A stretch of 64,000 nucleotides of DNA from Escherichia coli (GTDB lineage: Bacteria; Pseudomonadota; Gammaproteobacteria; Enterobacterales; Enterobacteriaceae): NCBI GenBank assembly GCA_031701365.1, contig GCA_031701365.1_4118.1. The stretch is one strand, 5' to 3'. Shown here piece by piece: positions 43,765 to 47,619 of the stretch; positions within the stretch are counted from its first letter, which is position 1, and every line of letters begins with the position of its first letter. A model generated the notes under the pieces. It saw only the letters and a list, made by a program, of their open reading frames with translations, had not been told where the DNA came from and did no database searches. The position numbers and the translations under genes were made by a program.

Positions 43765-43992
43765 ATGACAAATACTCTTAAGTACTACATCAATACTCTA
43801 AATGAACTAGAGTACGGGGAATTTCTCTCGGATAGTTCGTGGCTAATTGAGCTAAAAAATTATAATAGTCCAGGATGCACCCTTATGATGAACAATGCAA
43901 TTGATACCCTCATTGTGAGTATTTTACACAGCAACATCTGCGGGGATAGCAATAAACAATTATCAAAAATCTTAGTACTGCTATCTATATGA
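43765..43992 (+). CDS. small Tyr-rich protein, family S (S0, divergent)
   Basis: 75 aa; first gene after the divergent promoter. Confidence 0.55.
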   Translation: MTNTLKYYINTLNELEYGEFLSDSSWLIELKNYNSPGCTLMMNNAIDTLIVSILHSNICGDSNKQLSKILVLLSI

Positions 43993-44192
43993 ACATTGAA
44001 CAGTTCTACATCGATGCACTACCAACAAAAGGTCTACGAGAAAGCCTACTGTATACACAAAATACTTTTATACACTACAAACGTTGTCCTAAACTCCTGA
44101 ACTCGTACAGGAGTAATATCATAAGAAATGCTTTACAAGGGGCAGAAAGTATGCAATACTATTATATCCTTGCCCTTTTAATCGAGTACTAA
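43989..44192 (+). CDS. small Tyr-rich protein, family S (S1)
   Basis: 67 aa; ATGA overlap; C-terminal ILALLIEY. Confidence 0.6.
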   Translation: MNIEQFYIDALPTKGLRESLLYTQNTFIHYKRCPKLLNSYRSNIIRNALQGAESMQYYYILALLIEY

Positions 44193-44193
44193 T

Positions 44194-44403
44194 ATGAATA
44201 CTGAACATAAAGAATTCTACACCAAATACCTTAGCAACGAAGAACAATTGTTTCTAAGGAGTGTATCACCTTTAAGTATAGATACACCACACGCCAGAGA
44301 TTGCTTTAATAATTGTATACGTAGTACGCTAGAAGCAATCGAATGTAATAACAAAAATATTATGTACTCAGGTTTAATAGGACTAATCTACTTCTATGAA
44401 TAA
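44194..44403 (+). CDS. small Tyr-rich protein, family S (S2)
   Basis: 69 aa; MNTEHKEFY; near-duplicate of S14. Confidence 0.65.
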   Translation: MNTEHKEFYTKYLSNEEQLFLRSVSPLSIDTPHARDCFNNCIRSTLEAIECNNKNIMYSGLIGLIYFYE

Positions 44404-44590
44404 TCATAAAGATTTCTATTGTAGTAAACTACCCAAACAAGAACAGCTATCATTCTCTTTAGCACCACCTATGAGAAAGGATAATCTGTATTATAATTAC
44501 GATTTCAGGATGGTGACACGTTATGCAATAGAACATACGTTCCCTGAAACTAAGTACCGCTCTATCCTGAACCTCATCTTTAAGTTCTAA
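44396..44590 (+). CDS. small Tyr-rich protein, family S (S3)
   Basis: 64 aa; 8-nt overlap ATGAATAA. Confidence 0.6.
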   Translation: MNNHKDFYCSKLPKQEQLSFSLAPPMRKDNLYYNYDFRMVTRYAIEHTFPETKYRSILNLIFKF

Positions 44591-44642
44591 AAGGTGCAAC
44601 AGGGACCGAGTACTTTAATATAGTAAGGCTAATTACATTATA

Positions 44643-44828
44643 ATGAATCATATAAGCTATTATTACCAACAACTATCCGACAGAGACAAGTACAGTCACA
44701 ACTCCCATGTGTGGTACTACAAACGCGGCAGTATAAGAGACAAACAACATTACTTCTGTATTTCTATTAAAGAAGCACTAACAACTAAGTACACGTACCG
44801 AGCAGTACTTAAACTTATTGAAATGTAA
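44643..44828 (+). CDS. small Tyr-rich protein, family S (S4)
   Basis: 61 aa; C-terminal KYTYRAVLKLIEM. Confidence 0.6.
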   Translation: MNHISYYYQQLSDRDKYSHNSHVWYYKRGSIRDKQHYFCISIKEALTTKYTYRAVLKLIEM

Positions 44829-44836
44829 GGAAGAAA

Positions 44837-45019
44837 ATGAATATAGAATTCTATTTAACTAAACTACAACACGCCGAAAGATTCAACTTCAATAAGTTCA
44901 ATATTTTCTACAATTGCGGGAACAAAAAAGATAAACACACCTTCCTATATGTCGTCACAAGAGATGCACAAAACGAAAAGTACACATACAGAGAAGTAAT
45001 GAAACTAATCGCTATTTAA
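44837..45019 (+). CDS. small Tyr-rich protein, family S (S5)
   Basis: 60 aa; RBS AAGGAAG; C-terminal KYTYREVMKLIAI. Confidence 0.6.
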   Translation: MNIEFYLTKLQHAERFNFNKFNIFYNCGNKKDKHTFLYVVTRDAQNEKYTYREVMKLIAI

Positions 45020-45027
45020 GGAATACT

Positions 45028-45207
45028 ATGCAACAATTCTATAGAGAACGTATAACCATAAAAGACCGTTTCATGTACGACACATTCGTGAAGTACTACA
45101 AACTAGGAACAAAAAGTACTAAAAATATTAATCTCAATAGCTGCATTTATACTGTACTAACACAAGATAATCCCTACAGGGAAATCCTCGCACTGGCATC
45201 TATATAA
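45028..45207 (+). CDS. small Tyr-rich protein, family S (S6)
   Basis: 59 aa, not in ORF track; RBS AAGGAA; MQQFYRER. Confidence 0.5.
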   Translation: MQQFYRERITIKDRFMYDTFVKYYKLGTKSTKNINLNSCIYTVLTQDNPYREILALASI

Positions 45208-45217
45208 AGGAAACCAA

Positions 45218-45889
45218 ATGAAACTCAATCCACAAAGTAAACGATACCTACAGCACTTTAAGTACTTGCAATCCATCCAGGCTGAATCTATTACTAATGC
45301 ATATACGTATCACCCTAATGTACTAAAGAACCTAAAGAAAAGTAAAAAAACCAGTACAAATGGAGTTAACGTATCAAAGAACCTTGAATTGTACATGAAG
45401 AAAAATAATATAGCTGTTCATTATATGAATATCTATAATACTGATTTAAAAGTATTGAGTACTAATACGAGCACGAAGGTACTAAAGAACGCATCCTTCA
45501 TCATCAATATGCAGTTGGATAATACCCCGTGCACTTTAATGCTATACTTCGGGAATACATACTTCTTCGGGAATTGTAACACCTCCCACGATGTCAATAC
45601 AGCACAATTCCAAATGGGTGGCATATACTCTACTGATGCAGAAAAAGTACACGAGAATATGCACTTCTGGCAAGCACAACGTACAGAAGAAACTAAATCA
45701 ATTGTAGATTTCCTCAAAGAACTAGAACACAAAGATCTACAGGAAGAAGAACTATTCATGTACAGTACTGTAATCAATAATCCAGAGTTGTACAAAAACG
45801 CGTACAATCTTACAAAACATGTACAGGAACTTATCAGTACTAATAAGAAAATGCATCACCTCATTACATATATTGCAAACTATGCATAA
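45218..45889 (+). CDS. hypothetical protein embedded in the small-ORF array
   Basis: 223-aa ORF; RBS AAAGGAAA. Confidence 0.6.
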   Translation: MKLNPQSKRYLQHFKYLQSIQAESITNAYTYHPNVLKNLKKSKKTSTNGVNVSKNLELYMKKNNIAVHYMNIYNTDLKVLSTNTSTKVLKNASFIINMQLDNTPCTLMLYFGNTYFFGNCNTSHDVNTAQFQMGGIYSTDAEKVHENMHFWQAQRTEETKSIVDFLKELEHKDLQEEELFMYSTVINNPELYKNAYNLTKHVQELISTNKKMHHLITYIANYA

Positions 45890-46064
45890 AGAATACTACA
45901 CACAATTTCTCCCCAGTATTTTTCAACACTACGCCAGTTATAAAGTCCCCCTGAATAACGATTTGGCAGTACTTGGATTCGAAAATTGTATAGAACGCTG
46001 CATAGAAAACAGTAGCAGTTTAGACCAGCTATATAACATTATCCTACTTATATACAGGTACTAA
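45882..46064 (+). CDS. small Tyr-rich protein, family S (S7)
   Basis: start set at MHKEYY (ATG 45882, ATGCATAA overlap); C-terminal LLIYRY. Confidence 0.6.
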   Translation: MHKEYYTQFLPSIFQHYASYKVPLNNDLAVLGFENCIERCIENSSSLDQLYNIILLIYRY

Positions 46065-46255: not shown

Positions 46256-46256
46256 T

Positions 46257-46448
46257 ATGAATAATGAACATAAAGAATACTACCAAGAACATCTCCCAAT
46301 ACATCTTCAACACCTTGTGCCAACAAAACCTATTGGCATAAAAGATCATGCAAAAATAATGTTCCAACAATGTACTAAGTACACCCTAATATACGATGAC
46401 AATCCATATATGCTGTACTACGTAGTAATGCTAACATTCAGGTACTAA
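46257..46448 (+). CDS. small Tyr-rich protein, family S (S9)
   Basis: 63 aa; MNNEHKEYY...LTFRY. Confidence 0.6.
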   Translation: MNNEHKEYYQEHLPIHLQHLVPTKPIGIKDHAKIMFQQCTKYTLIYDDNPYMLYYVVMLTFRY

Positions 46449-46449
46449 T

Positions 46450-46629
46450 ATGCACAAATATAAAGAATTCTACCTCTCGTACCTTAATTCCGATATAGTA
46501 ACATCCAATACCTTCAGTACTAAAATTATCTATAATGAATTAATGAAAGAATGTATTAAAGGTGCTATTAACCCTAAAGATACGTATGACTTGTACTATG
46601 CAGTACTAACCCTTGTTTTCACGAAATAA
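46450..46629 (+). CDS. small Tyr-rich protein, family S (S10)
   Basis: 59 aa, not in ORF track; MHKYKEFY...LTLVFTK. Confidence 0.5.
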   Translation: MHKYKEFYLSYLNSDIVTSNTFSTKIIYNELMKECIKGAINPKDTYDLYYAVLTLVFTK

Positions 46630-46637
46630 CACATAAT

Positions 46638-46829
46638 ATGAATAACCACAAAGAATACTACATAGAGAAACTCCCAATGCATCTACAATACCTTGTACCA
46701 ACAGAACCATTGCGTATAGAAAAAGACTACGAAAAAGACTACTTCATTAAGTGCACTAAATCCTCGATAGATATTGAGGACTATAATCGAGTACTGTATC
46801 ATACCCTGTACCTAGCTTTCGTATTCTAA
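46638..46829 (+). CDS. small Tyr-rich protein, family S (S11)
   Basis: 63 aa; MNNHKEYY; paralog of S9. Confidence 0.6.
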   Translation: MNNHKEYYIEKLPMHLQYLVPTEPLRIEKDYEKDYFIKCTKSSIDIEDYNRVLYHTLYLAFVF

Positions 46830-46838
46830 GAGAACAAT

Positions 46839-47024
46839 ATGCATAAAGAATTCTACTTAAGCCATCTGGATCTAAACTCCCAAATGCTTATACCACTAAT
46901 CCCAATAGATATCAAGGATAAGAAAAATACCGAACAATTCATTTACCATACACAGTGTGCGATCACCCCAAATTACATTCCATATGAATTGTACTACATT
47001 CTCGCCCTAATATATAGGTACTAA
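46839..47024 (+). CDS. small Tyr-rich protein, family S (S12)
   Basis: 61 aa; MHKEFY...LIYRY. Confidence 0.6.
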   Translation: MHKEFYLSHLDLNSQMLIPLIPIDIKDKKNTEQFIYHTQCAITPNYIPYELYYILALIYRY

Positions 47025-47025
47025 T

Positions 47026-47211
47026 ATGCATAGGGAATACTACACACAATTTGTTAAAGGGAACTACAAACATGCCGTACCCAGAACCCCTTTAAATTCT
47101 CATGACCCAAGTACTATATTCTTGTTTAATGACGCAATACGCACAGTACTCAATACTAAAGATGAAGATGTGCAGTACGTATTCTTACTATTACTTATAT
47201 ACAGACACTAA
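47026..47211 (+). CDS. small Tyr-rich protein, family S (S13)
   Basis: 61 aa; MHREYY...LIYRH. Confidence 0.6.
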   Translation: MHREYYTQFVKGNYKHAVPRTPLNSHDPSTIFLFNDAIRTVLNTKDEDVQYVFLLLLIYRH

Positions 47212-47216
47212 CTAAT

Positions 47217-47426
47217 ATGAATAAAGAACATAAAGAATTCTACTCCAAATACATAAGCCCCTCAGAACAAATGTTTCTAAGGACTACACCACCTTTAAGT
47301 ACTGATACTCACTTCGGCAGAGTATGCTACAATAATTGTGTACAAATGACTTTAAACGCAAACGCCGATGATAACAGTACTAACCTGTACTCAGGTATCA
47401 TAGGTATACTATTCCTATATGAATAA
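47217..47426 (+). CDS. small Tyr-rich protein, family S (S14)
   Basis: 69 aa; near-duplicate of S2. Confidence 0.65.
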   Translation: MNKEHKEFYSKYISPSEQMFLRTTPPLSTDTHFGRVCYNNCVQMTLNANADDNSTNLYSGIIGILFLYE

Positions 47427-47619
47427 AGAATATAAAGACTACTATATAAGTAAACTAAAAAAGAATGAACAAGTGTGGATTAACGCTCTAATTCCTCTAT
47501 TAATGACTCGATATGAATTTAATAAATGTACCAAGATAGTAATAGACCCTTGTCCTGTTCTAGAGAATGTACAGTACAATCAGTACTACTACATGTTAAT
47601 ACTTATATATAGGAAGTAA
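47419..47619 (+). CDS. small Tyr-rich protein, family S (S15)
   Basis: 66 aa; MNKEYKDYY...LIYRK; last member. Confidence 0.6.
   Translation: MNKEYKDYYISKLKKNEQVWINALIPLLMTRYEFNKCTKIVIDPCPVLENVQYNQYYYMLILIYRK

Follow-up and report, generated by a model that had tools for sequence, protein, structure and literature searches.

Blocks of small genes that are expressed early in infection and act on the host are known from several phages. The host-takeover module of SPO1 and the pre-early region of T5 contain many small genes of unknown fold, which are read from strong host-type promoters and are positioned at the genome end; these genes lie inside the terminal repeat, are unrelated to each other and mostly have their own promoters. 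Anti-defence islands, including anti-CRISPR and other inhibitor loci, usually encode unrelated proteins and often a helix-turn-helix regulator. A different kind of small-gene multiplication was described in Bacillus phage G, in which about 35 copies of a zinc ribbon form a lineage-specific expansion in a jumbo phage (PMC7824862). Here we analysed a 64,000-nucleotide stretch of DNA (the window; contig GCA_031701365.1_4118.1 of the Escherichia coli assembly GCA_031701365.1) that carries, at 43765-47619, a tandem array of 17 open reading frames (ORFs), 14 of which demonstrably belong to one protein family.

The array is similar to the SPO1 and T5 blocks in its small genes, its host-type promoter and its place beside a terminal repeat, whereas it has one promoter and one expanded family and lies 285 bp outside the repeat. 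By consensus match, its promoter is a sigma-70 promoter of the class found at the genes of the repeat, but the array itself is not located inside the repeat. As in anti-defence islands, the encoded proteins are small, of fast turnover, taxonomically narrow, free of homologues and presumed to be binders; they are, however, 14-16 paralogues, and no regulator gene was recognised. With the zinc ribbons of phage G the array shares the multiplication of one small domain within a single jumbo-phage lineage, but it differs in its fold, in having no metal- or DNA-binding signature, and in its strictly tandem, apparently translationally coupled arrangement. In logic the array thus resembles takeover blocks and anti-defence islands, but it departs from the former by its place outside the repeat and from the latter by showing no homology to known inhibitors. 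It is a real, well-defined and clean lineage-specific expansion of an uncharacterised family, not a new kind of system. Our preferred interpretation, which is tentative and falls somewhat short of probable, is that the array is one early operon of host-directed binding proteins of an Asteriusvirus jumbo phage.

A tandem array of one expanded small-protein family

Seventeen + strand ORFs (g1-g17) tile 43765-47619, 16 of them encoding proteins of 59-75 amino acids (aa) and one a protein of 223 aa, in exact agreement with the coordinates given in a first-pass annotation of this DNA (Table 1). The tight head-to-tail packing described there applies to 15 of the 16 junctions, where neighbouring genes overlap by 4-8 nt or are 1-10 nt apart, but not to the g4/g5 junction, which measures 52 nt.

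Table 1 Features of the array and of its flanks in the window
Feature	Position	Strand	Description
Divergent intergenic region	43662-43764		103 bp, two separate promoter-like elements
Upstream motif of the first RCC1-like gene	43662-43694	-	GTAAATATGATATAACAAATAAAGGAGGGAAAT; common to other RCC1-like genes; no -35 element
Array promoter, sigma-70-type	43711-43739	+	TTGACA 43711-43716, 17-nt spacer, TACTAT 43734-43739
g1	43765-43992	+	75 aa, first cistron, family membership unproven
g2	43989-44192	+	67 aa, probable distant member, own sub-family
g3	44194-44403	+	69 aa, core member, closest paralogue g16 (54% identity)
g4	44396-44590	+	64 aa, core member
Deletion scar	44591-44642	+	52 nt, remnant of a g2-like cassette (its 3' end with the stop codon)
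g5	44643-44828	+	core member; g5-g7 form a sub-group of 59-61 aa ending ...YREVLKLIxI
g6	44837-45019	+	core member, g5-g7 sub-group
g7	45028-45207	+	core member, g5-g7 sub-group
g8	45218-45889	+	223 aa, phrog_29152, unrelated to the small family
g9	45882-46064	+	core member (g9-g17 span 59-69 aa)
g10	46067-46255	+	core member
g11	46257-46448	+	core member; closest pair with g13 (50% identity)
g12	46450-46629	+	core member
g13	46638-46829	+	core member, chimera of two 121Q-type cassettes
g14	46839-47024	+	core member
g15	47026-47211	+	core member
g16	47217-47426	+	core member; closest pair with g3
g17	47419-47619	+	core member, last cistron
Untranslated tail	47620-47903	+	284 bp, last stop codon to physical genome end; two CAGTACTG copies
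Homologue of packaged-genome base 1	47904-47924		where the ~21-kb direct terminal repeat begins; hairpin GGCAGAGGAAGTCTGCC comes next

All-against-all BLAST comparisons joined g3-g7 and g9-g17 into one family of 14 proteins. A profile built from these core members scored each of them at E values of 1e-17 to 1e-25, and in six-frame translations of the whole window nothing besides the core members scored below E=0.02; chance resemblance among the core members is excluded by these scores and by the recurrence of the array genes, under purifying selection, in at least 9 genomes. The two genes at the 5' end of the array are less clear. The alignment of g2 with the family is full-length but weak (hhalign P=0.005; hidden Markov model (HMM) E=0.036), which suggests that g2 is probably a distant member in a sub-family of its own, and a second g2-type copy was found in the phages slurp01, G17 and EC.P1. 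For g1, the resemblance covers only 17 N-terminal residues (hhalign P=0.02; HMM E=4.4). The earlier count of 16 paralogues therefore stands for 14 proteins, is weak for g2 and is unproven for g1.

In the family consensus, HKE(Y/F)Y at the N terminus and YYxxLxLI(Y/F)x(Y/F) at the C terminus, in line with the shared terminal motifs noted before, are accompanied by an invariant Tyr and by a Pro in mid-chain, and the proteins are indeed rich in Tyr (10.9% of residues in the array proteins versus 5.5% in the other ORFs of the window). The pairs that had been called near-duplicates are the closest pairs in the array, but they are only 54% (g3/g16) and 50% (g11/g13) identical.

The family had been considered to belong to no known family. 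This holds in so far as no Pfam or NCBIfam match and no characterised relative were found, but it is already clustered in PHROGs v4 as phrog_11711, a 62-position profile annotated as 'unknown function' that represents the same protein family as the core members. All five core members tested (g3, g4, g11, g14 and g17) matched positions 1-62 of this profile at E values of 8e-12 to 2e-25; g1, g2, g5 and g7 had no match at E<=0.1, and g6 was left out of the scan. On these matches, phrog_11711 covers only part of the small-protein family.

The family is confined to one phage genus and is predicted to be helical

The DNA of the region is 94-95% identical to that of the Escherichia phages slurp01, G17, 121Q and PBECO4, which assigns the source of the window to Asteriusvirus, that is, to a Rak2-like jumbo phage of the 121Q/PBECO4 group with a genome of ~350 kb and ~35% G+C. 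The array region was matched by 36 phage records, and in all of those inspected it is labelled as hypothetical proteins. Each of the eight other genomes examined has the array, as do metagenomic contigs, and the contig of one family member showed the same architecture.

Profile searches, which the first-pass annotation had proposed, characterised the family as an orphan of Asteriusvirus-type phages. A search of 5.8 billion proteins gave 46 matches, and an exhaustive HMMER scan of 1.84 billion representative proteins gave 30. The matching proteins were all 39-84 aa long, and every one with a named source came from an Asteriusvirus-type phage, except for one spurious TPR protein. In this 883-aa match (P0067, E 4e-5), only profile positions 5-24 were covered, through an EYYxxAL string, and the family had no Pfam TPR match, so a TPR relationship was rejected. 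No Pfam or NCBIfam family matched the small proteins, nor were matches found among PDB chain sequences or in PDB and viral fold searches, and none of these searches revealed homology to any known inhibitor. In these searches, the small family is thus restricted to one phage genus.

AlphaFold, supplied with an alignment of 47 sequences, modelled four helices (residues 3-11, 15-18, 30-45 and 50-62) with a mean predicted local distance difference test score (pLDDT) of 82 and a predicted template modelling score (pTM) of 0.64. The isoelectric points of the small proteins range from 4.7 to 9.4 and their charges from -3.4 to +4.8, and this spread argues against a uniform role as DNA mimics or nucleic-acid binders. 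Membrane anchoring was also rejected, because the hydrophobic C-terminal stretch of ~10-13 residues is modelled as a packed helix and is too short to span a membrane. The aromatic-x-aromatic ending, which we take to resemble the C-termini of outer-membrane proteins, was discounted as well, since the proteins have no signal peptide and the motif is partly explained by an overlap with ribosome-binding sequence (AGG TAC TAA, see below).

Cassettes are conserved individually and exchanged by recombination

Comparisons with orthologues in four genomes gave pooled ratios of nonsynonymous to synonymous changes (pN/pS) of 0.24-0.40, and those of neighbouring genes were 0.22-0.46 (one pair of neighbouring RCC1-like genes reached 0.56 with only 3 substitutions, which is uninformative). 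The genes of the array are real and under moderate purifying selection similar to that on their neighbours. Orthologues of g1 are 79-99% identical between genomes. Conserved alignment columns use several synonymous codons (Y9: TAC in 9 and TAT in 5; L68: four codons), which indicates that the constraint acts on the protein.

The number of small genes varies from 15 to 22 (SD-15_S21, 15; 121Q and the window, 16; G17, 17; slurp01, 20; E9.1 and EC.P1, 21; Ec-M-J, 22), and the order of the cassettes varies between phages. The 52-nt stretch between g4 and g5 keeps the last codons and the stop of a cassette of the g2 type, of which slurp01 and G17 have the intact form, and g13 joins the N-terminal part of the 121Q_259 type to the C-terminal end of the 121Q_261 type. 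The g4/g5 scar and the g13 chimera are direct traces of unequal recombination within the array. Along the small proteins pN/pS was uniform: the N-terminal part gave 0.34, the middle 0.39 and the C-terminal part 0.32. No positive selection was found in the variable middle, and the orthologues gave no indication that an arms race by point mutation is under way. The uniform pN/pS, together with the scar, the chimera and the reordering, indicates that each cassette is stably kept and that the repertoire shifts by gain, loss and recombination rather than by rapid point substitution.

The variation in copy number, the scars and the chimeras might also be expected if the array were a largely dispensable by-product of recombination-prone repeats, whose copies have no specific role. 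This explanation is highly unlikely, because every orthologue group is intact and under purifying selection like the neighbouring genes, and because the reading frames, start codons and promoter are conserved in all genomes. Even a dispensable array would document the evolution of tandem cassettes by unequal recombination in phage genomes.

Promoter and translation signals

The divergently oriented first RCC1-like gene starts at 43661, which leaves the 103-bp spacer described in the first-pass annotation. This spacer had been regarded as a control region shared by both arrays. Instead, it carries two different, back-to-back promoter-like elements, since the promoter of the small genes and the motif upstream of the RCC1-like gene are not alike. 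The array promoter, whose class was assigned by consensus match, agrees with the sigma-70 consensus at 10 of 12 positions and is followed by a Shine-Dalgarno (SD) sequence AAGGAG at 43751-43756, 8 nt 5' of the ATG of g1. Promoter core and SD sequence (43709-43761) are nearly invariant in 9 genomes, four of which have single substitutions (for example, TTGACACCC in EC.P1 and GTACTGTTG in 121Q); the leftmost ~45 bases of the spacer are more variable across the same genomes. On the other side, GTAAATATGATATAACAAATAAAGGAGGG is located 5' of the first RCC1-like gene, and a near-identical motif was found at other RCC1-like genes, each time behind a GCCAGTACnnTGTACTGGC hairpin with a T-run; none of the compared RCC1-like upstream motifs has a -35 element. 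In several of the gaps between RCC1-like genes, the terminator-like GCCAGTACnnTGTACTGGC hairpin is followed by TAAATATAGTATAATGAATAAAGGAGG.

Within the 17-nt promoter spacer lies the palindrome CAGTACTG (43723-43730). The same layout, TTGAC-N8-9-CAGTACTG-TATAAT, is also present upstream of small genes inside the terminal repeat, which places the array promoter in a class of host-type promoters used throughout the phage. About 8 copies of the palindrome lie between a TTGAC -35 and a TATAAT -10 element, 5' of small + strand genes and mostly at 48-64 kb. In the whole window CAGTACTG occurs 54 times, against ~1 expected (for example at 7021, 21681, 43723, 48251, 51368, 53278, 57280 and 59753); 12 copies are found within 47825-49499, and many more lie in coding regions. 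The octamer may serve as a phage-specific promoter element or as a site bound by a protein. In the literature, we found no paper on the array, its expression or this motif.

The abundance of CAGTACTG, and its presence in the promoter spacer of the array itself, would suit phage-internal regulators, in which the small proteins bind DNA or polymerase and time transcription, possibly at this palindrome, and the products are small and helical in the AlphaFold model. We consider such a role very unlikely, as domain, family and structure searches revealed no helix-turn-helix or other DNA-binding signature, the charges of the proteins are widely spread, and sixteen diverged copies are ill-suited to one invariant DNA site.

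Codon usage at the 3' ends of the genes points to translational coupling. AGG accounts for 5 of the 6 Arg codons in the last three residues, where it is part of the string AGG TAC TAA N ATG, versus 6 of 35 Arg codons elsewhere in the array genes. The C-terminal Arg-Tyr may thus double as the ribosome-binding site of the next cistron.

The array lies next to the terminal repeat

The related phage fEgEco12 has direct terminal repeats of 20,993 bp, with termini determined by PhageTerm and restriction digests (PMC13070987). The genome records of fEgEco12 and E9.1 open with AGTAGGCAGAGGAAGTCTGCC, a sequence that corresponds to position 47904 of the window. The window thus spans the boundary between unique sequence and the direct terminal repeat of ~21 kb. 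Ending 285 bp short of the repeat, the array is the final transcription unit on the unique side. In fEgEco12 and E9.1, the last small gene likewise stops ~270-300 bp before the right-hand copy of the repeat.

Over its initial ~1.7 kb (47904 to ~49580), the repeat has no long ORF and is rich in CAGTACTG, and no Rfam RNA family was found in 43000-50500. Approximately six tandem units of ACGGCTAA / CTAGACGGCTAAACGG are located at 48679-48812 in this ORF-free part, possibly as a packaging or replication signal. Phage E9.1 has another tandem array, unrelated to the first, just past the left terminal repeat (20205-26000); its overlapping genes, at least 27 in number, encode 65-96-aa proteins with a common LGTNYQE-x-YV motif, so that the genus has arrays of small paralogues on both flanks of the repeat.

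Relation to the RCC1-like array

Ten genes for RCC1-like beta-propellers occupy 31562-43661 of the window on the - strand, and the products of at least three of them start with MLPFGRMxxYxNIxPGP. In phage phAPEC6, eight RCC1-like proteins are virion-associated (PMC7247149), and because of this the 'DNA condensation' label attached to such genes is unverified. The 62 proteins detected in the phAPEC6 virion include no member of the small family, though a 4.7-kDa protein was detected (PMC7247149).

The first-pass annotation had suggested that the two arrays are functionally linked and that their co-occurrence should be examined. Within Asteriusvirus they are always together, adjacent and divergent in every genome or metagenomic contig examined. 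Outside it they are not: in Salmonella phage Munch and Klebsiella phage fENko-Kae01, 12-14 RCC1-like genes sit directly beside the terminal repeat without any small-family member, and database-wide profile searches found no small-family member from other genera. The numbers of RCC1-like and small genes (10/16, 12/16, 12/21, 13/20, 9/15, 13/21 and 15/22) are correlated (Spearman 0.86, p=0.013, n=7), although this is a weak test because the genomes are related.

These observations bear on the main rival of an early host-directed role, namely that the small proteins are functionally paired with the RCC1-like beta-propellers as adaptors, inhibitors or immunity-like partners. In one version, they would be made early and would block RCC1-like proteins carried in virions, whether of the same phage or of superinfecting ones. 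The constant adjacency and divergence of the arrays, the expansion of both in Asteriusvirus and the correlated copy numbers all speak for such a pairing. The correlation may, however, reflect shared ancestry of the seven genomes, the gene numbers are not one to one, and Munch and fENko-Kae01 carry their RCC1-like genes in the absence of the small family. In addition, the RCC1-like proteins are virion-associated and have another upstream motif without a -35 element, which suggests that the two arrays are probably in different temporal classes. Taken together, a functional pairing is unlikely, and the link between the two arrays is ambiguous: adjacency and copy numbers favour it, and the Munch and fENko-Kae01 genomes, the virion location and the differing upstream motifs do not.

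Proximity to virion-associated RCC1-like genes, and a small size that suits internal head proteins, would also fit assembly chaperones or packaged internal proteins. We regard this as extremely improbable, given that the array has a sigma-70-type promoter and not the motif of the neighbouring structural genes, that none of the small proteins is in the phAPEC6 virion proteome, and that the array is oriented opposite to its supposed clients.

A proposed early, host-directed role

The promoter type and the place beside the terminal repeat fit early, host-directed proteins, by analogy with the described takeover blocks, and the array is likewise compatible with the earlier idea of inhibitors or anti-defence proteins. 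We propose that unmodified host RNA polymerase would read the conserved sigma-70-type promoter, which would drive all 17 cistrons, and that the overlapping or abutting stops and starts would let ribosomes pass from gene to gene, with the C-terminal AGG TAC TAA of several genes supplying a Shine-Dalgarno-like AGG for the next. The products of 14-16 cistrons are diverged copies of one ~60-residue protein with four predicted helices, in which the aromatic N-terminal helix (HKEYY) and the C-terminal helix (YYxxLxLIYRY) would form a conserved scaffold, with a connecting stretch that varies among the copies. Each copy would then be a stable, individually conserved small binder with a partner of its own, and the set, acting as stoichiometric binders and not as catalysts, would target host proteins early in infection to achieve takeover or counter-defence, with unequal recombination between cassettes altering the repertoire. 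We infer the early timing, the translational coupling and the reading of a scaffold with a variable surface from sequence features and from the predicted fold.

Several points weigh against this proposal. We found no transcriptome or phenotype in the literature for any Asteriusvirus, and 'early' rests on promoter consensus and on analogy with genes located in the terminal repeats of other phages. The array itself is not inside the repeat. The variable middle, with a pN/pS of 0.39 versus 0.34 and 0.32 at the ends, is unlike what an active arms race predicts, and the co-variation of copy number with the RCC1-like array hints at a phage-internal partner.

A more specific reading, which we regard as distinctly doubtful, is that the array is a phage-evolved library on a tiny four-helix scaffold, each cassette serving for a different partner, either host immune and housekeeping proteins or the RCC1-like propellers of competing phages. 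If the partners were virion-delivered RCC1-like propellers of rivals, the two adjacent arrays would form a pair for attack and self-protection, that is, superinfection exclusion. Such a library would be a new protein-inhibitor scaffold and a new form of counter-defence, organised as one translationally coupled, recombining array.

Jumbo phages consist mostly of genes without known function, and the array is one of the clearest expansions specific to a lineage, in a coliphage genus that is well sampled and whose host is easy to work with. If its copies bind host or rival-phage proteins specifically, they would provide a ready-made set of small inhibitors and a compact binding scaffold of natural origin, and such a binder array would help explain how these phages cope with diverse E. 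coli strains. The members are short and easily synthesised, which makes the idea directly testable.

The 223-aa protein and other features of the window

The g8 gene is located mid-array in every genome, and its homologues are confined to the same phage group. We considered g8 as a zinc metalloprotease and rejected this, because the HENMH of the window becomes HDNMH, HDNMY, HDKMY or HNNMY in homologues and the protein has no Pfam match. The idea that its C-terminal ~65 residues are a small-family protein fused to it was not supported either (hhalign P=0.19 across 13 columns; no HMM match). The AlphaFold model of g8 was too poor for a fold search (pLDDT 39.5).

Elsewhere in the window, a 321-aa ORF at 3659-4624 (+ strand) matched phrog_351 (RNA polymerase sigma factor) at E 3e-60, which would fit a phage that redirects host polymerase for later gene classes. 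The GC skew at 44001-48000 is -0.15 to -0.16 despite the + strand genes and resembles that of the - strand RCC1-like block, whereas the other + strand blocks of the window range from +0.02 to +0.19. The AT skew of the same interval is unusually high (+0.17 to +0.20). The skew of the array may result from the Tyr/Asn/His/Lys-rich composition of its proteins.

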